Of a DNA stretch of 48,490 bases, positions 2,194 to 30,935 are shown one piece after another; the stretch's first letter is position 1; every line of letters begins with the position of its first letter. A model generated the notes under the pieces. It saw only the letters and a program-made list of their open reading frames with translations. It made no database searches and had not been told where the DNA came from. The translations under genes and the position numbers were made by a program. This DNA is from Lambdavirus PDP110P1, in sequence record OZ035751.1; one strand, 5' to 3'.

Positions 2194-3714
2194 GTGTGGT
2201 GGTTTAAAAAGAAAGAAGTCGCCGCGCCTGAGCCGGCAAAAGAACCTGAAGCACCGAAGGTCGGGATCAGGCCAGAGGCCGTGGCCGAAGTCCGCGCATT
2301 ACCGAAAAGAGAGTTTCAGCGCTACGAGCCGCCGAAAGGGGTGATCCCCGAGGCTATCAAAAGCGCCATTCTGGCAATGGACTCCACGCCTTACGATGCT
2401 CTCAATGCTGCGTATGGCGGCTACGGCTACGGCGACTTTGATAGCTTCCCCGGATACCCGTATCTGGCCACGCTGGCGCAAAAGCCTGAATATCGCAAGA
2501 TGGTCGGCACCATCGCGGAAGAAATGACCCGCAAATGGATAAAGCTCAAAACTGTCGGCGATGAAGACAAGGCGGATCGGGTAAAACAGCTCGAAGAGGC
2601 CATGAAGCGGTTTAAGGTGCGCGAGCGCTTTAAAGAAGCCGCAGAGCATGACGGCTACTTTGGCGGCGGCCAGATTTACATCGACGTTCGTTCGCCGCGG
2701 GGCATCTCCGCATGGATGGACGACAACGAGCTGCAATCGAAGCTCTTCATGAGCGACAAGAAGATCACGAAAGGCAGCCTGCAGGGGTTCAGGGTCATCG
2801 AGCCTATCTGGACCTATCCGGGAATTTATAACTCCGACAACCCGCTGAGCCCGGATTTCTACAAGCCGACGCAGTGGTTTGTCATGGGACGGACCGTACA
2901 TGCAAGCCGGATGATTGATTTCGTCTCTCGGCAGGTGCCGGATCTGCTGAAAGCATCGTATAACTTCCGCGGCCTGTCTCTCTCGCAGATTGCCGAGCCA
3001 TACGTGAATAACTGGCTTCGCACCCGCGACAGCGTCAGCGACATGATTCACTCCTACTCGATACCGGTTTTCGGTACGGATATGAGCCAGATCCTGACAG
3101 GTGGCGCAGCGGATACGCTGATTGCCCGCCTGCAGGTTATGAATCAGTGTCGTGATAACCGCGGGGCGTTCGCTATCAATAATGATAAGGAAAAGCCGGA
3201 GACCGTGGAGTTCGTCAGCGCCCCTATCGCCGGCCTTGATGCCCTGCAGGCTCAATCTCAGGAGCACATGTCAGCAGTATCGAGCATCCCGCTCGTCAAA
3301 CTACTGGGCATTACTCCAAATGGCCTTAACGCAACGTCTGACGGCGAAATTCGCGTTTTCTACGACTACATTCACGCCCTGCAGCAGTCTGTTTTTAAAG
3401 ACAACCTGAAGCGCGTGATGGACATCATTCAGCTCTCTGAGTTCGGCGACATTGACGATGGCATAACCTTCGACTTTGAGCCGCTGTACGAAATGAGCGC
3501 TAAAGAGCGGGCGGAAATTCGCAAAGTAGACGCTGACACGGACGCTGTCTATGTGGCCGCCAGCGTGCTCTCTGGCAACGAAGTCCGCGAAAAAATCGCC
3601 GGTGACCCGGACTCTCCCTATCACTCTCTGGACCTGAATGATGACCTCGAAATCGAAGACGACTACGACGAAGAGGAAGAAACAGACCCTGACGATAAGG
3701 GCGGTTCATCCTAA
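2194..3714 (+). CDS. portal protein (putative)
   Basis: 506 aa directly after TerL, GTG start, acidic C-terminal tail; size and order typical of portal. Confidence 0.65.
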   Translation: MWWFKKKEVAAPEPAKEPEAPKVGIRPEAVAEVRALPKREFQRYEPPKGVIPEAIKSAILAMDSTPYDALNAAYGGYGYGDFDSFPGYPYLATLAQKPEYRKMVGTIAEEMTRKWIKLKTVGDEDKADRVKQLEEAMKRFKVRERFKEAAEHDGYFGGGQIYIDVRSPRGISAWMDDNELQSKLFMSDKKITKGSLQGFRVIEPIWTYPGIYNSDNPLSPDFYKPTQWFVMGRTVHASRMIDFVSRQVPDLLKASYNFRGLSLSQIAEPYVNNWLRTRDSVSDMIHSYSIPVFGTDMSQILTGGAADTLIARLQVMNQCRDNRGAFAINNDKEKPETVEFVSAPIAGLDALQAQSQEHMSAVSSIPLVKLLGITPNGLNATSDGEIRVFYDYIHALQQSVFKDNLKRVMDIIQLSEFGDIDDGITFDFEPLYEMSAKERAEIRKVDADTDAVYVAASVLSGNEVREKIAGDPDSPYHSLDLNDDLEIEDDYDEEEETDPDDKGGSS

Positions 3715-4465
3715 CGCTGGCGTCGAAGCATGGTACCGCCGACAGCTTGATAAGCAGGTGCAGGAAATGCAGGCATCTGTTGTCTACTGGCTGTCGGCAA
3801 ACTATCGGGCCAGCGGCGCGGCTGTCGCCATGGATGCATCGCCTGCAGTGATGATGCGGAATGCCATGCAGAAACTGGCTAAGCGCTGGACGCGGCGGTT
3901 TGATGACATGGCGCAAAAGCTGGCCGACAGATTCGCTAACGACGCCATGAAAAACGCGGATGCGTCACTGGCCACAGCCTTCAAAGATGCGGGGTTTACT
4001 GTCGAGTTCAAGATGACCTCGCAGATGAATAACGCTCTTCAGGCGACCATCGCCGAGAACGTCGGCCTTATCCGATCCATCCCCGAGAAGTATTTCACCG
4101 AGGTGGAAGGGCTGGTTATGCGGTCGGTAGCGCGTGGGCGCGACCTGTCCTATCTCACCGATGAACTCCAGAAGCGATACGGGATTACCCGGCGCCGTGC
4201 GGCGTTCATTGCCCGAGATCAGAACAACAAGGCCACCTCAGTCGTTCAGTCTGCGCGACAGCAGGCGCTAGGCATTACCCAGGGTATATGGAAGCACTCC
4301 CATGCAGGTAAGAAGCCTCGCCAGTCCCATGTGAAAGCTAATGGCAGGCTTTTCGACCTCTCGGAGGGGATGCTCATTGATGGCGAGCACATCATGCCAG
4401 GCGAATTACCAAATTGTCGTTGCACCTGGGAGGCTGTCATTCCAGGGCTTTCAAAACAGGATTGA
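3638..4465 (+). CDS. head morphogenesis protein (Mu F / SPP1 gp7-like)
   Basis: 275-aa ORF after portal; true start may be the internal ATG near 3764, since the track start overlaps the portal gene by 77 nt. Confidence 0.55.
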   Translation: MMTSKSKTTTTKRKKQTLTIRAVHPNAGVEAWYRRQLDKQVQEMQASVVYWLSANYRASGAAVAMDASPAVMMRNAMQKLAKRWTRRFDDMAQKLADRFANDAMKNADASLATAFKDAGFTVEFKMTSQMNNALQATIAENVGLIRSIPEKYFTEVEGLVMRSVARGRDLSYLTDELQKRYGITRRRAAFIARDQNNKATSVVQSARQQALGITQGIWKHSHAGKKPRQSHVKANGRLFDLSEGMLIDGEHIMPGELPNCRCTWEAVIPGLSKQD

Positions 4466-5635
<1,170 letters not shown>

Positions 5636-5636
5636 C

Positions 5637-6119
5637 ATGGCAGGTTTTCAGACACGAATTAACCAGTATCCGGCCCCCGGCGTCGAAGGGGCCTTTGCTG
5701 GCACCAACCCTCACGCGACCTATCAGGCCGGCGAGGGAGCTCTGGTTGCTGGCGAGGACGGCCTGACTGTCGGCCGCTTCGCCTGGGACGTTGACGGTGT
5801 GGCTTCCAATGCCGGTAGCGGTGTTCCGTCTGGCTTTGTCCATCGTGACGGTCAGGCCTCGATCACCATCTGGCTGGGCCAGGCATCCATGCTTATCCAG
5901 CCCGGACGCGAAATCACCCTGATGGTTGCCGGTGACTTCTGGGCCAAAACGTCAACCGCTGCCACCCGCGGGCAGAAGGTTTTTGCATCCCTGACCACCG
6001 GTGAGGTGCAAGTCGCCGCAGCCGGCGCGACCGTGGCCGGTTTTATCGAGACCGCATTCTATGCCGCAAGCGATTGTGACGCTGGCGAGCTGGTCAAAAT
6101 CAGCACCTGGAGCAAGTAA
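5637..6119 (+). CDS. putative head structural/decoration protein
   Basis: 160-aa Gly/Ala-rich ORF immediately upstream of the major capsid gene. Confidence 0.4.
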
Positions 6120-20909: not shown

Positions 20910-22205
20910 TTGAATAATTCAGCCATACCGTCACGTCTGACGGTTGTCTTTTCTGTGAGCGGCGATAAAAACACGATCCCGGTCAATTCCACCTCTGAAA
21001 CGCTGGCCGACGGCCTGGCGGCTATGGATTCCGGTTTCCCGCCGCTGACCCGTATCGCACTTTCTGCCGGCGGTAAGCCGCCAAAGGGTCAGGACTTTAA
21101 CGGCATTTTTAATGATCTTTACACTCGCCTGCAATGGTCGGATGCCGGGATGGGGTACCCCTTTAACGCAGATTTCAGAACAGCCATTTCAGGCTACCCT
21201 AAAGGTGCGGTGATCCCTTCCAGCGATTACTCGGTGTCGTGGCTCAACACCATTGACTCCAATAACACCGCACCGGAAAAAACCGATGCAACGGCATCTG
21301 GCTGGATGCCTTCATGGGGATGCGGAGCGGCCAGCATTTCAATATCGACGGCTAACGTTAACGCCACCGATCTGCAGGCTGCTAACCCACGGCTAATTCT
21401 CACCGGCGCGCTAACTGGCAACCGGGTCCTTTATCTTCCGCCCTGGGTGAAAGACTGGACCATCGAAAATAACTGCACCGGCAGCGCTTACTACGTTCAG
21501 TTAAGCACCAGGGCAGCGGGCGCAACGGTTGTCAGCAAGCCAGGCACAGTTACTCAAGTCCACTCCGATGGAATCAACGTAACCTCCCTTTCTACGCCTC
21601 ATGGAAACATCGCTTACGCAGTCAACGGGACATATTCGTTCGTCGTGCCTGCAGGGGTGACGCGTATTCGTTACACCGTGACGGGTGCAGGTGGATCGGG
21701 AAGCGGTTGTCAGGCGTCCTCCTCAAGTGAGTCCTATAGCGGTGGCGGGGGCGGGGCTGGAGGCACAGCAATAGGCTGGCTGGATGTTGTTCCGGGAACG
21801 ACCTTGTCAGTTGTTGTGGGCAAAGGCGGTGCAGCGGTTTTAGGTGCCGTATCCGGCAATGACGGTGGTGACTCTTCTTTGGGTGGGATCATCTTCGGTC
21901 GCGGCGGCAAAAAAGCCAACAAGGCCAGCATCGTGAACAGCGCCGGTGGTGATGGTGGTCTTGCATCAGGTGGCGATATCAACATTCAGGGTGGTACCGG
22001 TCAGGACGGCCAGGCAGCGACAAACATGCTTACCGGTTCTGGCGGTGCTTCGTTCTGGGGTGGTGGCGGACGTAGCGGCGCAACCGGCGGTGTGAAAGGG
22101 AAAGCAGCAGGCTCTGGCGGTGGTGGTGCTTACGATATTGATTTCAGCGGAATAGCTTACCCATCCGGCGATGGCGCCGATGGCATTGTGCATATCGAGT
22201 GGTAA
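20910..22205 (+). CDS. tail fibre protein with glycine-rich C-terminal domain
   Basis: 431 aa; TTG start with GGAGG RBS; C-terminal Gly-rich domain paralogous to that of 25986-27017. Confidence 0.55.
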   Translation: MNNSAIPSRLTVVFSVSGDKNTIPVNSTSETLADGLAAMDSGFPPLTRIALSAGGKPPKGQDFNGIFNDLYTRLQWSDAGMGYPFNADFRTAISGYPKGAVIPSSDYSVSWLNTIDSNNTAPEKTDATASGWMPSWGCGAASISISTANVNATDLQAANPRLILTGALTGNRVLYLPPWVKDWTIENNCTGSAYYVQLSTRAAGATVVSKPGTVTQVHSDGINVTSLSTPHGNIAYAVNGTYSFVVPAGVTRIRYTVTGAGGSGSGCQASSSSESYSGGGGGAGGTAIGWLDVVPGTTLSVVVGKGGAAVLGAVSGNDGGDSSLGGIIFGRGGKKANKASIVNSAGGDGGLASGGDINIQGGTGQDGQAATNMLTGSGGASFWGGGGRSGATGGVKGKAAGSGGGGAYDIDFSGIAYPSGDGADGIVHIEW

Positions 22206-22219
22206 TAACAGGAAAAATT

Positions 22220-25030
22220 ATGGCGACTACCGACACACAGCAAACGGCACAGTTCGCGGCAGAGGCTGCTGTTAGTGCCGCAGAGGCGAAGCAGTACTTG
22301 ATCGAGGTCCAGCAGGGCTATCAGGACATAAGCGCCACCACTCAGGAAGCGATTAATGCAGCCACAGCGGCAGAGGCGGCGAAGATCGCCGCAGAAACTG
22401 CTGAGCAAAATTCATCTACTTCGGCCGCAGCCTCATCCGAATCGGCAACGGCAGCCGCAGGTTCAGCAGCACAGGCTGAAGAGTATGCAAATAACGCTTC
22501 TGACTACGCACAGAATAAGTTCACGTTCTATAAGACTGCCAGCGATCCTGATGGCACCATTGCAGGGTTGGCAGCAACTACTGACGGCCAGTCGTTCTGG
22601 GTAGCTCAGGGGCCAGATGCGCTTTCTGCTGCATGGCAGTATCAAAACAATGCTGGCGTGGCCGTATTGCAGGCAAAGCAGCCAGGCACGGCAGCCATAA
22701 CCGGGACAATCCGCGAATTCCCCACGCTGGAGGCGGCACAGGATGATGCCGATGCCGGCAATATTCCTACAGGTTCAACTGCGTATTATCGAAGCGCTGA
22801 CGACGAAACTCTTGCGATTGAGGTTATTAACACTTCAGGAACGCTGCAGCCTACTGGACGAAAAATGCCATCCGCAATGCCAATGGGTTACCAGTCTGCT
22901 ACAGCTGTGAGTAGCGGTGCGGCTAATACCATTGCTATCACTATCCCCGGATTATTAGTGGATGGCAGTTTGATTTATTTCCTGTCTCCTATTTTGAATA
23001 CGGCGGCTGTTAGCGTTACCGTGACAGATGCCAGGGGGAACTCGGTTACTCGGGCAATACAGAAACAAAATAATGCAGCTTTAGTTGGGAATGAGTTGCT
23101 TCTCAATCAGCCCGCACTGATGGAATTCCGCACTGGGACTGCTAACAATTTTGTCCTTGTGGCATCCGGCCCAGTAGCTGCTGAACTTGCGTCAAGAATT
23201 TCCACGCTTGAATTAAATAGCGTAGCGTTATTGTCTGGCGTTGCTAATACTGCGGACGCCTACACCGCGTCAGCGTCAGCGATACCAGGCCTGGTTGCCT
23301 CTGACCGCGTTTTCCTTTTCACTCCGAGTGCGACGAACACGACACGGACGCCGACCTTATCCGTGAATGGCGGCACTGCGCGCCAGATCAAACAGGCGAA
23401 TGGTACCAACGTCGCAGCGGGAGACCTGGTCTCTGGCTACCCTTATTTATTAAAATTCAATTTTGCATCGGCTGACTTTCGTATGCTCACATACCCAGCG
23501 GACCGGACGCGTCTGCTCAGCGGCCAGCAGAAGGCCACCGTAACCAGTGACGCAACAAGCCCGAACGCTATATCTTTAACAATCCCGGGCCTTATCGCGG
23601 ACGGCACACAAATCACATTCGAGCCAGCTGTCACCAATACCGGGGCGGTGACGCTGCTAATCACCAACATGTATGGCGACACCGTGACTCGCACCCTGAT
23701 GAAAGGGGCTAACACTCCTCTCGTCGGTGGTGAACTGAAGTACGCCATGCCGGTTTCTATCATGTTCAGGGGGGCTCCACAGAACAACTTTAAGCTCCTA
23801 TATGCTGGCGACCCTACCACGGATATACAGACCCTATCGAACGACGTTACGACGCTCAAGGGGTCGCTGACAGACCCTTATGCTGCTCTGGCGGATAAAC
23901 TCGTGGGCACCGGGGTATTATCAGACCAGTCACCATTCGGTACTATAACTTGGTCCGCGGGGGTTAAGAGCGTCACTAAGCGGCAGATCATTTGTACGTC
24001 TGTCGGGTCTTCTGTTGGCGTTGGGGCCGGCTCTACTGGCGGTGGTGCGGCAGGTGCCGCTTATGCACCGAACACACTGTTCGTCAACGCCTTGAAGGAA
24101 GAGCTTAAACAGTACGGCGAGTTTGACGTCATCGATGACAACCAGTGCATACCAACTCAGGCGATTCAGCAGTTCGCTGCCCAGCTAGCGAATTCGCCTT
24201 ATTCAACCTCCGACTTTGTTTTGATTGTAGGGGGGATGAATGATGCGCCAGTTGGTAACTTCAACATGGGGCGCACATTCCCCGGTCAACAAACGTCTCT
24301 CGAGTCGCTGGTAGACTTGTGTCTGGCACGAGGAGCGATTCCAATCATTTGCACTACTCCACATCATAATGTGGAAATGTCTCAGACGTACCCCACAATC
24401 CCCGGTGGTAACCCGCTGTTCTGGCCGTTCAGGACATATAATGTCACAAGTACATATGTCTTCGACGCCGTTGCAAATACCATCACGCAGAGTAACTTTG
24501 CTAACCCGAATTATGGCGGCAATATTCTGAAGCCGGGGCATACTCTGCGCGTAGAAAGTGGAGACAATATCGGCAACTATACTATCACGGCCATTTCCTC
24601 TGACCGGAATACCATAACCGTCCAAGAGACAATCCCGGTAAGTGGAAGCTACTCGACAACGGTCAGACACTTTAACCTGCAGTCCATCGCTGAGGATATT
24701 CTTTACCCTGCACCGTCGGTTTCCTTTGTAACAAAAGACTGGTCCGGTAGCGGCGTTAAGGTACAGGGAGATGTGCGGTTCGAAATGGTGAATAATATGC
24801 AAAGGGTCGTCGCACGCAAAAAAGGCGCGTTCCTCGCAGACTGTGAAAAGTCGTTCTTTAAGTATGGTGTAGAGGTTGGTGGTTACTCGTCGGTATATAA
24901 CGTCCCAGCTGGAAACTACAATCACATGAACGATAACGGGTACACAGTAACTTTCGACTACACGCTGAAAGTCGCAGCAAGGAAGATTGCCAATCTCATA
25001 TTCGGAGATAAATATTACTCTGCAGCATAA
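22220..25030 (+). CDS. tail fibre/tailspike with SGNH/GDSL-hydrolase-like domain
   Basis: ~936 aa from ATG 22220; Ala-rich coiled-coil N-terminus typical of fibres; GDSL-like segment (…ICTSVGSSVG…LIVGGMNDA…). Confidence 0.5.
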   Translation: MATTDTQQTAQFAAEAAVSAAEAKQYLIEVQQGYQDISATTQEAINAATAAEAAKIAAETAEQNSSTSAAASSESATAAAGSAAQAEEYANNASDYAQNKFTFYKTASDPDGTIAGLAATTDGQSFWVAQGPDALSAAWQYQNNAGVAVLQAKQPGTAAITGTIREFPTLEAAQDDADAGNIPTGSTAYYRSADDETLAIEVINTSGTLQPTGRKMPSAMPMGYQSATAVSSGAANTIAITIPGLLVDGSLIYFLSPILNTAAVSVTVTDARGNSVTRAIQKQNNAALVGNELLLNQPALMEFRTGTANNFVLVASGPVAAELASRISTLELNSVALLSGVANTADAYTASASAIPGLVASDRVFLFTPSATNTTRTPTLSVNGGTARQIKQANGTNVAAGDLVSGYPYLLKFNFASADFRMLTYPADRTRLLSGQQKATVTSDATSPNAISLTIPGLIADGTQITFEPAVTNTGAVTLLITNMYGDTVTRTLMKGANTPLVGGELKYAMPVSIMFRGAPQNNFKLLYAGDPTTDIQTLSNDVTTLKGSLTDPYAALADKLVGTGVLSDQSPFGTITWSAGVKSVTKRQIICTSVGSSVGVGAGSTGGGAAGAAYAPNTLFVNALKEELKQYGEFDVIDDNQCIPTQAIQQFAAQLANSPYSTSDFVLIVGGMNDAPVGNFNMGRTFPGQQTSLESLVDLCLARGAIPIICTTPHHNVEMSQTYPTIPGGNPLFWPFRTYNVTSTYVFDAVANTITQSNFANPNYGGNILKPGHTLRVESGDNIGNYTITAISSDRNTITVQETIPVSGSYSTTVRHFNLQSIAEDILYPAPSVSFVTKDWSGSGVKVQGDVRFEMVNNMQRVVARKKGAFLADCEKSFFKYGVEVGGYSSVYNVPAGNYNHMNDNGYTVTFDYTLKVAARKIANLIFGDKYYSAA

Positions 25031-25417
25031 GGAATTATCATGGCTTTTAAAATTTCAGCAGTAAAACTGTCCAGATTTATTATCTCGGAGGATTTCTGTG
25101 TGAAAAGGATATCGGTATTGACCTCATTTACTCAGTAGAAAGCGTCAGGCAGGATGATGCAGGTCAAGTTAAAGCCTCAGTATCTGTTCGATATAATGAT
25201 GCGTCCAGAGTTAACGCTGGAGAGTATGCGGTAACTCTGGACACTTCGTCATCAAAACCGTGGACAGAACAGGCTGAGCAGCAACTTATGCAAGCTGAAG
25301 AGTTTGCTGGGGCAGTTGTCCTGTAACCACAAAAAAAACCTACGCAGACTGAACTGGGTTGACTGCCCTCCGATAAAACTACTGTATATAACAACAGTGT
25401 TTATCGGAGGGCAGATC

Positions 25418-25657
25418 ATGCTTCGACAGTCAGACATCGCCGCGGCTTTCCGCGAGTCCATTTTGCGCAGTTCCAAGGGGTTCCAGTACCTCCACACCCG
25501 CGACTTCGTTACCGCGCTTCGCCGGCGTGGCATCCATTTTTCCGAGGTGGAGGCGAACTCCTGGATCGCACGCGAGCAGACGTATTTCGTCGATAAGACG
25601 CCGGACCATAGCGAAAACAGGCTGTGGATGATGGCCAACATGGGGAGGGTGATCTAA
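25418..25657 (+). CDS. hypothetical protein
   Basis: 79 aa from ATG 25418; its RBS GGAGG lies in the 3' arm of a 15-bp perfect hairpin. Confidence 0.4.
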   Translation: MLRQSDIAAAFRESILRSSKGFQYLHTRDFVTALRRRGIHFSEVEANSWIAREQTYFVDKTPDHSENRLWMMANMGRVI

Positions 25658-25974
25658 TGGGATTCCCTTCACCAGCGACGGACTACGTTGAGCAAAGGTT
25701 GTCTGTTAACTCGATCTGCAATGTCGGCCCAAACACGCTAGTTTTCGAGCGATCTGGCGGTTACGTTGTGCTGGATATCTCCCTGAAGCCAAAGCAGGGT
25801 AGTCAGGTTCTTATCCAGCACGGCGGCGGGACGGAGCTTGCCACGCTGAGAGGAAAGTCACTGATTACTGAAGATGGTGAAGCGATCGAGGGCGAAGCCC
25901 TGGACGATGTTACTGTCATCGGCGTCGTGACGTTTACTATCTGCGATGTTCGTTCCGATAATTCTATTATTTAA
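25657..25974 (+). CDS. hypothetical protein
   Basis: 105 aa; RBS GGGGAGGG; TAATG overlap with upstream gene; directly upstream of third tail fibre. Confidence 0.4.
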   Translation: MGFPSPATDYVEQRLSVNSICNVGPNTLVFERSGGYVVLDISLKPKQGSQVLIQHGGGTELATLRGKSLITEDGEAIEGEALDDVTVIGVVTFTICDVRSDNSII

Positions 25975-25985
25975 CTGGGGTATAT

Positions 25986-27017
25986 ATGGCGCTGAAGCTA
26001 TTAGCCAATAATAACGCAAAGAGTGTTCTCGCTGCGGGTATTAGCGCGTCCGCTACCGTTATTACCGTGGGTACTGGAGCTGGGTCTTTATTCCCGTCCC
26101 CTGTATCTGGGCAGAGTTATTTCAAATTAACGATAACCGACGCGGCCACGAAAACAATTTCTGAAATTATGCACGTCACGTCTGTATCCGGTGACGTGAT
26201 GACAGTAATTCGTGGTCAGGAAGGAACTACGGCACGCGTATGGTCAACGAATGACATTGTCGCGAATTTAATGACCGCCGGATCATTGTTGTCGTTCCTG
26301 CAGATCAGCAATAACCTGTCAGAAATTAAAGATGCCGGTGAGGATGCGATAAATGAAGCCCGTTATAACCTCGGAATATCTGATTCCTCTGGTTTTGTCG
26401 GGCGTTCACTTGGCGCTCCAAAAGCTTTCTATGCAAACGGAACCTATACGCGATCTCCTCTGGCCCGTTATGCAAAAGTAACGTTGACCGGTGCCGGTGG
26501 CGGCGGTGGCGGCTGCCAGGCCTCCAACAATACAGAAACCTTCTCCGGTGCTGGCGGCGGCGCGGGCGCGACCATTATCGTATGGGTTGACCTGTCTGCT
26601 GCCAGTTCTTATGCGATTACTGTCGGCAAGGGTGGTAAGGGCGGAGTTGGCGCAGTAAGTGGTGCGGATGGTGGGGCCACCTCGTTTGCCAGCCTGTTCT
26701 CAGCTCCTGGCGGGAAAGGAGGAGTGAAGTCAGGCGTGTCCAATACCGCCGGCGGCGCCGGAGGTACGGCGGCGACCGGAGATATCAGGATCAACGGTGG
26801 TACCGGCTCAGATGGACAGACAGGCTCAAGCCTTCTGACGGGCAACGGCGGGGCGTCGTATTTTGGCGGCGGTGGCCGGGCGGGTTCTCAGGCCGGTATT
26901 GCTGGCGCAGCTCCCGGATCCGGTGGTGGTGGCGCGTATGACCTTGGGTTTACCGGTACGGCATTTACCGGTGGTGATGGTGCTACTGGCATGGCGATCG
27001 TGGAAGAATTCGCGTAA
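25986..27017 (+). CDS. tail fibre protein with glycine-rich C-terminal domain
   Basis: 343 aa; C-terminal ~170 aa paralogous to C-terminus of 20910-22205. Confidence 0.55.
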   Translation: MALKLLANNNAKSVLAAGISASATVITVGTGAGSLFPSPVSGQSYFKLTITDAATKTISEIMHVTSVSGDVMTVIRGQEGTTARVWSTNDIVANLMTAGSLLSFLQISNNLSEIKDAGEDAINEARYNLGISDSSGFVGRSLGAPKAFYANGTYTRSPLARYAKVTLTGAGGGGGGCQASNNTETFSGAGGGAGATIIVWVDLSAASSYAITVGKGGKGGVGAVSGADGGATSFASLFSAPGGKGGVKSGVSNTAGGAGGTAATGDIRINGGTGSDGQTGSSLLTGNGGASYFGGGGRAGSQAGIAGAAPGSGGGGAYDLGFTGTAFTGGDGATGMAIVEEFA

Positions 27018-27159
27018 TGGCTTACACTCCTGCACGACCATCGATGTAATCAGCCCACCACTGCATCATCTACCTGCGCTTATCGAGATACTGAGCATGG
27101 TTGTAAATTCAACTAACCCAGTGCATTGACAAAAAATTAGCGCAAGAAGACAAAAAATC

Positions 27160-27420
27160 ACCTTGCGCTAATGCTCTGTTACAGGTCACTAATACCATCT
27201 AAGTGGTTGATTCATAGTGACTGGATATGTTGTGTTTTGTAGTATTATGCAGTCTATTATTTAGACTAAATCTTTCATAACATATTGATATTTACAGTGT
27301 TTTCTGTTTATTGTTCAGCTTTTTTATACTAAGTTGGCATTATAAAAAAGCATTGCTTATCAATTTGTTGCAACGAACAGGTCACTATCAGTCAAAATAA
27401 AATCATTATTTGATTTCAAT
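27160..27420. other. attP: attP (lambda-type; core 27318-27332)
   Basis: lambda core GCTTTTTTATACTAA with flanking lambda arm sequence (…ACAGGTCACTA…), adjacent to int. Confidence 0.85.
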
Positions 27421-28476
27421 TTTGTCCCACTCCCTGCCTCTGTCATCACGATACTGTGATGCCATGGTGTCCGACTTATGCCCGAGAAGATGTTGAGCAA
27501 ATTTATCGCTTATCTGCTTCTCATAGAGTCTTGCAGACAAACTGCGCAACTCGTGAAAGGTTGGCGGATCCCCTTCGAAGGAGAGACCTGATGCTTTTCG
27601 TGCGCGCATAAAATACCTTGATACTGTGCCGGATGAAAGCGGTTCACGACGAGTAGATGCAATTATGGTTTCTCCGCCAAGAATCTTTTTGCATTTATCA
27701 AGTGTTTCCTTCATTGATATCCCGAGAGCATCAACATGCAATGTTGTTGGGATAGCAATTTTTACGCCTGTTTTGCTTTGCTCGACATAAAGATATCCAT
27801 CTACGATATCAGACCACTTCATTTCGCATAAATCACCAACTCGCTGCCCGGTAACAACAGCCAGTTCCATTGCAAGTCTAAGCCAACATGGTGATGATTC
27901 TGCTGCTTGATAAATTTTCAGGTATTCGTCAGCCGTAAGTCTTGATCTCCTTACCTCTGATTTTGCAGCGCGAGTGGCTGCGACCGGGTTTGTTGTTATA
28001 TGGCCTTCAGCTATAGCCTCTCGGAATGCATCGCTCAGTGTTGATCTGATTAACTTGGCTGATGCCGCCTTGCCCTCGTCTATGTATCCATTGAGCATTG
28101 CCGCAATTTCTTTTGTGGTGATGTCTTCAAGTGGAGCATCAGGCAGACCCCTCCTTATTGCTTTAATTTTGCTCATGTAATTTATGAGTGTCTTCTGCTT
28201 GATTCCTCTGCTGGCCAGGATTTTTTCGTAGCGATCAAGCCATGAATGTAACGTAACGGAATTATCACTGTTGATTCTCGCTGTCAGAGGCTTGTGTTTG
28301 TGTCCTGAAAATAACTCAATGTTGGCCTGTATAGCTTCAGTGATTGCGATTCGCCTGTCTCGGCCTAATCCAAACTCTTTACCCGTCCTTGGGTCCCTGT
28401 AGCAGTAATATCCATTGTTTCTTATATAAAGGTTAGGTGGTAAATCCCGGCGCTCATGACTTCGCCTTCTTCCCAT
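27406..28476 (-). CDS. int: integrase (lambda Int, tyrosine recombinase)
   Basis: 356-aa protein MGRRRSHERRDLPPNLYIRNNGYYCYRDPRTGKEF…, recognised as lambda Int. Confidence 0.95.
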   Translation of the reverse strand: MGRRRSHERRDLPPNLYIRNNGYYCYRDPRTGKEFGLGRDRRIAITEAIQANIELFSGHKHKPLTARINSDNSVTLHSWLDRYEKILASRGIKQKTLINYMSKIKAIRRGLPDAPLEDITTKEIAAMLNGYIDEGKAASAKLIRSTLSDAFREAIAEGHITTNPVAATRAAKSEVRRSRLTADEYLKIYQAAESSPCWLRLAMELAVVTGQRVGDLCEMKWSDIVDGYLYVEQSKTGVKIAIPTTLHVDALGISMKETLDKCKKILGGETIIASTRREPLSSGTVSRYFMRARKASGLSFEGDPPTFHELRSLSARLYEKQISDKFAQHLLGHKSDTMASQYRDDRGREWDKIEIK

Positions 28477-28672
28477 TTCTGATCCTCTTCAAAAGGCTAC
28501 CTGTTACTGGTCGATTTAAGTCAACCTTTACCGCTGATTCGTGGAACAGATACTCTCTTCCATCCTTAACCGGAGGAGGGAATATCCTGCACTCGCGTAC
28601 CCATCGACGAACTGTTTCAAGGCTTCTTGGGCGTCGCTGGCGAGCGTTCCACTCCTGAAGTGTCAAGTACAT
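28454..28672 (-). CDS. xis: excisionase Xis
   Basis: 72 aa MYLTLQEWNARQRRPRSLETVRRWVRECRIFPP…; overlaps int start as in lambda. Confidence 0.9.
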   Translation of the reverse strand: MYLTLQEWNARQRRPRSLETVRRWVRECRIFPPPVKDGREYLFHESAVKVDLNRPVTGSLLKRIRNGKKAKS

Positions 28673-28757
28673 CGCAAAGTCTCCGCAATTACTCGCAAGG
28701 GAACGAGTAGTGGTTGATTTTTCTCCAACAAAAAAGGAGCCGAAGCTCCTTTGATGA

Positions 28758-29381
28758 TTAAAATTCGAATTGTCTCGCCCGAAGGCTTTTCAACATTGGT
28801 CTTGCCCGTTCGAAAACGGCGCTTGTCTGGTCAAGTCGTGTCGCCTCCCTGAGCAGTACATCTCTGTTTTTCGTCACCGCATAGAAGGTTTCAAACGCAA
28901 TGTCATACAGCTTACTCGCGTATGATGAGTTAAGTTCCTTCATTATCGGGTACAGGAGTTTGCAGATGTCCTGTGCATTCTCCATCTGTACCTGCATGTA
29001 GCAGAGGAGGATGATTTCCTCGTCTGTGAATTGCTGCGCTGGTTGCATGCTGCGAAGTTTCTTTTCGCACTCGATGAAGTATCGGCGTATCTGGCGGCCT
29101 TTTTCGTTGCGCTCCACCATAGCCAGTTCTTTGGCTGTATCGAGGGTGAGGTGGTAGTCCTTGCGGTTGTGACCGCCTCTACCAGATGTTTGCTTTCCCA
29201 AATTGGAAAGCAAAATATAGTCTTGATTTTCAATGAATTTGTATTCTGAAATGCGATTTGTAATCCATGCCGCAAACACCTTTTTCACGCCTAAAAAAGC
29301 ATGCAGATCGCGGGCATTGCAGAGTAGGGCTGTTTCGTTGGCGATAGTGCCGTTGAATACGGGGATGAGTTGACTGGTCAT
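28758..29381 (-). CDS. antirepressor-like protein (AntA/ORF6N-type N-terminal domain)
   Basis: 207 aa from ATG 29381 with RBS AAAGGAGG; N-terminal domain resembles the phage antirepressor/Bro-N family. Confidence 0.5.
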   Translation of the reverse strand: MTSQLIPVFNGTIANETALLCNARDLHAFLGVKKVFAAWITNRISEYKFIENQDYILLSNLGKQTSGRGGHNRKDYHLTLDTAKELAMVERNEKGRQIRRYFIECEKKLRSMQPAQQFTDEEIILLCYMQVQMENAQDICKLLYPIMKELNSSYASKLYDIAFETFYAVTKNRDVLLREATRLDQTSAVFERARPMLKSLRARQFEF

Positions 29382-29736
29382 GATGACCTCCTTTGAAGTT
29401 TTAGTTAGCAATCACCAGTTAGTGGCTGGTGATCGGGTGTCAACTAGAGCCTTCAAAGATGCTCCGGGCATATTCCCCTTGCGGGTATTGTATTACGCCT
29501 CTCCACCCGACCTTTGTACGGATGTGACTATGCCAAATTGCAGGCATAAAAAAGCCGCAAAGCTATCGGGTGCGGATGACCGCTTTGAAGTTCTAGTGCG
29601 GTCAGTATGCGATAGCTCTGGCGGATTTGTCAAATCATGTGGTCTTTATCTTGCTGTAAGCCGCGCCATTCGGGATTTTCCCCAAATTTGGGGGAAACTA
29701 TCTGCGAAGTATTCACCTTTGACGGCAAGTTTCAGG

Positions 29737-30021
29737 TTAGCCACGACCTTCCTCCTTTGGCTTGTGAATTTGTATCGTCATGCCGCTTTGAGTGGTGACT
29801 ACAATGACAGAACCAGGCTGAAGGCTGTTAAGATTGAATGCTTCGTAAAACGAATCCAATGCCAGTGCTTTTTTATTCTTTCGGTCCCACCAACGCCATC
29901 CCTTGCTACAGGCTACACTGACAATCCACTGTCCACTCCTGTAAGCCATATAAAACCAGATGAGCAAAACCTGAAGGAAGACTATCCAGTCAATAATCGT
30001 ATATTTCGCGAAGGAGTCCAT
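29737..30021 (-). CDS. small membrane protein
   Basis: 94 aa; N-terminal hydrophobic helix; ATGA overlap with upstream gene. Confidence 0.4.
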   Translation of the reverse strand: MDSFAKYTIIDWIVFLQVLLIWFYMAYRSGQWIVSVACSKGWRWWDRKNKKALALDSFYEAFNLNSLQPGSVIVVTTQSGMTIQIHKPKEEGRG

Positions 30022-30935
30022 TACTTCATCTCCTGCGGCGGTTCCGGTAGCGGCATCCAGTGAGTTGCTTGCTCAATACCATTACCCGGCTTAATCGTTG
30101 CATCTCCGCGCCGAAAGGTGCTTCCGGTATAGCGTGCGGAGCATATTAGCGGTTCAACCAGAGAGCTATCGAAATTCACCGAAATAAGCACGTTCTGGCC
30201 ATTTTCAGGCATTCGATCACTACAGCTTATCCAACTATCCGGAGTTCCCGGAGAGTTGCCATTTACATCGAAGTTTGGCTCTGCGTCCTGAACCAGGAGG
30301 ATGTAACCATTCTTGGCTGTATCAAGTTCTAACGCCTCGGTGACGGTGCCGAAATAGCGATTACCTAAATCAGCATCACAAGTGCTTACATCAATGGAAA
30401 CTTCCATGCCTTCGATTAATTCTGGCAAGTTGTAAGTTTGGCTTACAGGTTGGCTACCCTGAAGCATGGCAGCGTGGCAGGCTTCATCAACCATAGCTTC
30501 TACGTTTTCGAGAAGTACGTAACTGTACTGCTGCCCACTAACCCATTCTTTTCTGCGAGGTAATGCGCGTGGGTCCGCTACAATGGTTCGCAAACGTTCC
30601 AGAACAGCAGGCACTACCGGCTCTACTGCCAACTGACTGGCATATTTGTTAATGGTAACGATAAGCTCTTGCTCGGCCTCATCCAGACAATCACCGATAC
30701 CTCGCCTGTCACCGTCAAAATCATCGAAATCGGCACGAATCCTGGCAACCTCCCGGATTGCGGACAACACTTCACCAGGAATAAGCGGAGAGTTGCCCGA
30801 TAGTGCATTCTGCTCCAGTGATGCCAGTGCAATCCGTGCCAGCTCACGAATCTCACCGCCGTCTATATCGTCAATGTCATCACGGCCAGAAATGTTAGCC
30901 AGCCATTGCAGTCGCTCTTTGGTAATAGTGGTCAT
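30021..30935 (-). CDS. DUF551-domain protein
   Basis: 304 aa; RBS AAGGAG; C-terminal motif …ATHWMPLPEPP resembling DUF551. Confidence 0.5.
   Translation of the reverse strand: MTTITKERLQWLANISGRDDIDDIDGGEIRELARIALASLEQNALSGNSPLIPGEVLSAIREVARIRADFDDFDGDRRGIGDCLDEAEQELIVTINKYASQLAVEPVVPAVLERLRTIVADPRALPRRKEWVSGQQYSYVLLENVEAMVDEACHAAMLQGSQPVSQTYNLPELIEGMEVSIDVSTCDADLGNRYFGTVTEALELDTAKNGYILLVQDAEPNFDVNGNSPGTPDSWISCSDRMPENGQNVLISVNFDSSLVEPLICSARYTGSTFRRGDATIKPGNGIEQATHWMPLPEPPQEMK

Follow-up and report, generated by a model that had tools for sequence, protein, structure and literature searches.

The small gene lying immediately 3' of the large tail-fibre gene in Lambdavirus PDP110P1 (OZ035751.1; the 48,490-nt stretch analysed here, referred to below as the window) is, with a probability that we put at roughly 0.9, an allele that has recently lost its function or is at best severely hypomorphic; in its intact form, the gene has 95 codons, is conserved and is linked translationally to fibres of the SGNH-esterase type in temperate phages of Klebsiella, E. 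coli and Raoultella. Alignment with its relatives identifies it as a disrupted member of a family of 95-amino-acid (aa) fibre-linked proteins (P0001-P0037), one A having been lost from a run of five in the window allele. The frameshift thus arose by recent mutation of an ordinary kind rather than being a programmed one.

The original prediction of an ATG at 25040 (plus strand) opening a frame of only 32 codons was confirmed; this frame (25040-25138; MAFKISAVKLSRFIISEDFCVKRISVLTSFTQ) ends at a TAG at 25136-25138 and, when aligned to the family, consists of nine native residues (MAFKISAVK) followed by 23 out-of-frame residues. The start-less second frame of about 90 codons that had been described as reaching 25326 is likewise present, since 91 sense codons run without interruption in the -1 frame (codons at 25042+3n), from 25051 to a TAA at 25324-25326, and the sole ATG, GTG or TTG of that frame is an ATG close to its end (M84 of the family), while the third frame contains stops throughout. 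The start codon at 25040 is served by a Shine-Dalgarno (SD) sequence, AAGGA at 25029-25033, which overlaps the stop codon of the upstream partner of the split gene, a tail-fibre gene of 943 codons read from GTG 22199 (22199-25030); the fibre stop (25028-25030) and the ATG are separated by 9 nt. Joining the two frames at 25063-25066 yields a product of 95 aa that starts MAFKISAVKTVQIYYLGG / MAFKISAVKTVQIYYLGGFLCEKDIG and ends AVVL, its peptide spanning K9 and T10 being AVKTVQIYYLGGFLCEK, as opposed to LSRFIISEDFCVK in frame 0. By tblastn, family residues 9-95 map to 25063-25323, with the frames joining at residue 9, and no second copy or paralogue of the gene was found elsewhere in the window. 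The shift itself had been placed near a G-AAA-AGG stretch around 25100, which turned out to be wrong by about 40 nt: the frame changes upstream, at 25063-25066, and a slip site around 25103 is impossible because, ahead of 25100, family residues 10-22 (TVQIYYLGGFLCE) lie in the -1 frame already.

The joined product matched 38 related proteins in a collection of 5.8 billion (best E 1.5e-50; 65-95% identity over residues 1-95), and therefore the two-frame pattern is far beyond what chance would produce. These proteins, 27 of which are exactly 95 aa long, come from Klebsiella, E. coli and Raoultella assemblies as well as gut metagenomes and are all unnamed; several open with the identical decapeptide MAFKISAVKT. 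None of the 38 invariant columns of the alignment (A1) is altered in the window, although the nearly invariant (>=90%) A56 and K57 are. We also translated each of about 47 loci drawn from IMG/VR, metagenomes and assemblies, and about 44 of them carry the gene as a single-frame open reading frame (ORF) of 91-96 aa (counting L025, which has a C-terminal extension to 106 aa, and L054, which is cut by a contig end), with K9-T10 (AAA ACN) invariant across these single-frame loci. In contrast, the window allele is split into 32 and 86 codons. The only other loci without a single frame, apart from the clade that shares the window allele, are L044, a metagenome contig with a separate frameshift near the C-terminus, and L037. 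The latter retains a 5'-truncated remnant (residues ~37-93; 4990-5174 of that locus) preceded by an AT-rich insert with two unrelated ORFs, and hence the accessory gene has been lost independently at least one more time. Compared pairwise with intact relatives (Nei-Gojobori), the repaired window allele gave dN/dS values of 0.06 to 0.29, which means that the family represents a real gene under purifying selection. Among annotated phages, blastn and tblastn returned PDP110P2 as the sole match, a DNA-pattern and protein scan of the GTDB representative genomes gave no match, and our literature search found no paper on the 95-aa family. The family is small, strictly fibre-linked and absent from Pfam and PHROGs.

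The linkage to the fibre is tight. The gene begins 9 nt 3' of a fibre gene in 40 of 43 loci, where the fibres are ~835-1000 aa long (shorter only if cut by a contig end), share at least ~52% identity with the window fibre over the last 200 residues and end in ...LI[FY]G[DE]KYY. The remaining three loci have one extra small ORF in between, and the upstream fibre of two of them (L022 and L023) is also of the SGNH/GDSL type; the linkage to SGNH-type fibres covers every checkable locus, L020 being left out. The window fibre itself combines a fibre-type N-terminus with an SGNH/GDSL-like region at about residues 600-780 (Pfam Lipase_GDSL_2, E 1e-5, which is under the gathering score), falls in PHROG tail-fibre families and carries the PGAP name 'SGNH/GDSL hydrolase family protein'; its ORF is uninterrupted in the window and in the prophage of E. 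coli 20KM2222. PGAP starts the fibre of the sister prophage at an ATG corresponding to 22220 of the window rather than at GTG 22199. Receptor-binding proteins with SGNH esterases are common in Klebsiella prophages (PMC12115436). In the record of this sister prophage (L001, NZ_CP151050.1; positions 3271-6090 correspond to window positions 22220-25039), the fibre has been given by PGAP only as a 654-nt partial pseudogene ('missing C-terminus'), ~2.5 kb carries no annotation and the split small gene is left out; the 943-codon ORF is nevertheless intact there and identical to that of the window. The fibre module is flanked by two proteins with a Gly_rich_2 (PF21722) C-terminal domain, encoded at 20910-22205 (431 aa) and 25986-27017 (343 aa), both of which match PHROG tail-fibre families, one of these families being labelled 'tail fiber assembly'.

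The lesion is evident from comparison with six close relatives (L002-L007) and about 40 more loci. The six relatives read GTAAAAAC where the window has GTAAAAC, with near-identical flanks otherwise (...GCAGTAAAAACTGTCCAG... in the relatives vs. ...GCAGTAAAACTGTCCAG... in the window), so that GTA AAA ACT has become GTA AAA CT at the boundary of codon 9 (AAA, K) and codon 10 (ACT, T), leaving a tract of four A's (A4) at 25063-25066. All six have the five-A (A5) tract, and one of them, L006, is otherwise the same as the window over 25 nt upstream and 30 nt downstream. The stranded remainder (25066-25326; codons T10-L95 plus TAA) is 100% open and has no start codon of its own. Its freedom from stops and further indels speaks against inactivation, but would be expected of a very young lesion. 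Ribosomes would thus initiate at ATG 25040, just past the fibre stop, translate nine native codons and then 23 codons in the wrong frame, and terminate at TAG 25136, leaving the remaining 86 codons unreadable in the -1 frame. We infer that the truncated product is non-functional; what the analysis shows is the lesion and where it lies, that it arose only once, and that the relatives are intact and under purifying selection. The frameshifted-pseudogene alternative of the original prediction is therefore supported by the change from A5 to A4 relative to intact relatives that are under purifying selection.

Within the census of IMG/VR, metagenome and assembly loci, the A4 allele is limited to one haplotype (clade), represented by four records. 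Besides the window, these are a prophage of E. coli 20KM2222, with two mismatches over window positions 1-27336 (27.3 kb) but mosaic, with a different early region; Wanchaivirus PDP110P2 (Hendrixvirinae), whose homology is restricted to the fibre region (22778-30062) plus scattered early-region matches; and IMGVR_UViG_2541047706_000005, which is homologous only from 22463 onward, with unrelated sequence upstream, and shows five mismatches over 23250-27017 and an extra D39G. All four share the substitutions N26G, A56S/K57R and A69T, found in no A5 allele, and a nearly identical fibre module of ~4 kb set in differing backbones. Since a single haplotype recurs across several projects and backbones, the split reflects a single, real and recent deletion that has been spread by recombination, not an error and not recurrent switching. 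On this reading, the deletion arose once, in one haplotype, and the ~4-kb fibre module carried it via recombination into at least three phage backbones, a spread which suggests that the loss is tolerated.

The segment shared with PDP110P2 (L008, OZ035745.1), an HK97-like phage, is 100% identical over 22809-27374 (4.5 kb) and takes in the fibre (its distal three quarters) together with the split gene, the genes for a 79-aa and a UmuD'-like protein (below) and a Gly_rich_2 protein. The tail genes of the window itself belong to the baseplate-J type and are unrelated to PDP110P2. This indicates that phages of differing tail types exchanged a host-range module very recently. The window as a whole looks like the full genome of a temperate phage (48.5 kb), cut open immediately before a small-terminase-like DUF2280 gene and carrying a lambda-type integrase at 27406-28476; its near-twin in E. 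coli 20KM2222 (L009) is located between ybhC and ybhB/bioA, which is where the classical attB of lambda lies.

The A4 branch shows four non-synonymous codon changes (N26G, A56S, K57R and A69T) against one synonymous change (K73), and one member of the clade (L019) adds D39G at a column that is invariant in the family. At the codon level, A56 and K57 are invariant in 19 of 19 relatives (the protein P0005 has V at 56). This pattern is suggestive of relaxed constraint, albeit weakly, given that the events are very few and that A56S and K57R are probably one. Specifically, the haplotype-specific triple substitution that produces TCC AGA (S56 R57) at 25204-25209 changed GGCGAAAG to GTCCAGAG, turning three bases into the exact complement of TCTGGA at 25236-25241 and lengthening an inverted repeat from 17-19 to 20 matches of 25; in the window (25193-25252) it gives an 11-nt perfect complement to TAACTCTGGAC (25232-25242). 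From this arrangement, a single quasi-palindrome template-switch event is the probable origin of A56S/K57R.

It could be argued that one A of the homopolymer was dropped in sequencing or assembly and that the gene is really intact, given that A5-to-A4 is a typical homopolymer miscall on some platforms and the rest of the frame is undamaged. We consider this extremely improbable, however, because A4 is present in four separate records from differing projects and genome backbones and always occurs together with the same distinctive substitutions, while assemblies with identical local context give A5 (L006). Even less credible is that the remainder is translated from a non-canonical start or that minus-strand ORFs (25164-25394 and 25252-25641; 76 and 129 aa) that overlap it are the real genes. 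The -1 frame does contain ATT, CTG and ATC codons, but no SD sequence precedes any near-cognate codon, the relatives start at an ATG 9 nt past the fibre gene, and it is the plus-strand frame that is conserved, with low dN/dS across the family. An internal restart at GGAGG 25087-25091 was also considered and rejected, both nearby GTG codons being in the wrong frames.

Another possibility, again a highly improbable one, is that -1 frameshifting, programmed or usefully leaky, supplies the normal 95-aa protein at a lower level. Here, tRNA-Lys would slip from AAA at 25064-66 to AAA at 25063-65 and decoding would continue with ACT GTC CAG...; the re-pairing on A_AAA would be perfect, the slip would restore the exact family sequence, and persistence of the broken allele across several phage backbones could be read in the same way. 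The programmed-frameshift alternative in the original prediction was not supported, though. The usable overlap (25051-25068) offers four A's and no X_XXY_YYZ heptamer; the A4 tract is the sole place where a -1 slip of tRNA-Lys could restore the frame, through a single-tRNA slip on A_AAA_C, and the next 0-frame codon is CUG, a common codon that is decoded quickly. No 3' stimulatory structure was predicted over 25058-25150 (93 nt; MFE -15.1 kcal/mol vs. a shuffle mean of -17.7, z +0.9), nor is there an SD-like element upstream of the tract. Further, only one haplotype of near-identical members shows the two-frame layout, against ~44 single-frame relatives, and the sequence downstream of the tract is essentially that of relatives needing no frameshift. 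Rare spontaneous slippage on A_AAA_C may yield some full-length protein, but nothing suggests selection for it. Compared to known programmed -1 genes (lambda G/GT, dnaX), the window similarly has two overlapping frames related by -1 and an A-rich site, but differs in having no heptamer, stimulator or conserved split, and in a short frame-0 product without conserved identity. Hence, we favor the ordinary frameshift mutation as the explanation of the split.

The label of assembly chaperone that the 95-aa protein had been given from its N-terminus remains unproven: its first 16 residues are Tfa-like and the gene is fibre-adjacent, but Pfam, PHROG and PDB returned no match. Specifically, neither Pfam (at E<=1, only an unrelated flgK fragment) nor PHROG assigned a family to either frame, to the joined product or to intact relatives, and a PDB sequence search with the 95-aa protein was also negative. 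In hhalign against lambda Tfa, only 16 N-terminal residues aligned (probability 15.7%). The N-terminus MAFK.S...K T.QIY.L resembles that of lambda Tfa, MAFRMSEQPRTIKIYNL. Known tail-fibre assembly proteins (TFAs) consist of a variable, N-terminal, fibre-binding beta domain and a conserved C-terminal trimerising helical domain (PMC9608196), and the 95-aa gene resembles those of the TFA / Caudo_TAP family (PF02413: lambda Tfa, Mu TfaMu and P2 G; PMC9608196) in being small and immediately 3' of the fibre. A confident AlphaFold2 model of the 95-aa protein (pLDDT 87) has a long beta-hairpin (residues 2-38), two more strands and a helix (75-84), i.e., a predicted layout similar to that of TFAs in that a beta-rich N-terminal part is followed by a conserved C-terminal helix; the protein lacked the combination of a TfaMu-like fold (PDB 5YVQ) and a conserved C-terminal trimerising helical domain. 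The 95-aa protein could be a miniature TFA analogue, but is not a demonstrable member of the TFA family. When the model was compared with BFVD by Foldseek, all the matches were proteins of 85-96 aa from Klebsiella phages (P184, FBKp27, Kp2, KpV41 and others; E 6e-6 to 6e-4, TM 0.67-0.79), none of them characterised, which are like the 95-aa protein in size and predicted fold but share just 14-29% sequence identity with it.

A profile search of 1.84 billion representatives returned 20 matches at E<=0.001. Five or six of these are small proteins (89-100 aa) without a family in Pfam or PHROG, and the others are short fragments or giant surface proteins containing repeats. Three giants were scanned, and two of them (P0044 and P0046) have MBG_3 repeats, to which family residues ~41-76 weakly match, in up to 11 stretches per protein. 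We considered homology to these repeats and set it aside, the match probably reflecting a generic G-x-Y-x-V-T beta-hairpin motif instead, although residues ~41-76 (window ~25160-25270) may have a distant adhesin-repeat relationship. Taking position alone as the basis, a fibre-specific accessory role for the family, as assembly chaperone or distal adaptor, comes close to an even chance without quite reaching it. It is less likely, and we advance it tentatively, that the family constitutes an undescribed, non-TFA class of accessory (chaperone or distal adaptor) for SGNH-esterase fibres, with the A4 allele as a circulating natural knock-out.

Downstream of the split gene, a TTGACT hexamer resembling a -35 element precedes an inverted repeat with perfect 15-nt arms (25363-25377 / 25400-25414). 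Its loop contains TACTGTATATAACAACAGTG (25380-25399), fitting CTGT-N8-ACAG, the LexA-box consensus. A gene for a 79-aa protein of unknown function (25418-25657; phrog_3893) has its ribosome-binding site, GGAGGG, within the right arm of the repeat, and is overlapped by a 105-aa UmuD'-like gene (25657-25974; phrog_3469). The product of the latter begins with M-GFPSPATDY, at precisely the point where UmuD is cleaved, and shows GGY in place of the UmuD catalytic GDS. The predicted LexA box is retained in most relatives having the 79-aa gene; the two arms of the repeat change in concert in L023 and L024, most relatives have an imperfect left arm, and the 25363-25414 repeat is perfect only in the window's lineage. 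Region 25359-25974 thus looks like an SOS-regulated moron, in which the hairpin might mask the ribosome-binding site when late transcripts read through the region, while leaving it accessible on those started at the SOS promoter.

The closest parallel to the situation described here is the stf gene of lambda PaPa, which Hendrix & Duda (1992) reportedly found to be split by a frameshift into orf-401 and orf-314. Both cases involve a lambdoid phage, a single-base frameshift and a non-essential gene of the fibre module in genomes that are otherwise viable. However, it is the small downstream accessory gene, not the fibre, that is hit in the window, and in natural prophages as opposed to a laboratory lineage. 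For annotation purposes, the locus should be represented as a conserved gene for a 95-aa fibre-linked protein, here disrupted by a frameshift, rather than as two small ORFs or a recoding site. If the family is indeed an accessory class for SGNH-esterase fibres with A4 as its natural knock-out, the accessory would be dispensable for the fibre of the A4 haplotype, or rare slippage on A_AAA_C would supply enough of it. In this respect, the natural knock-out allele would offer a ready test of whether SGNH-esterase fibres need their 95-aa partner.
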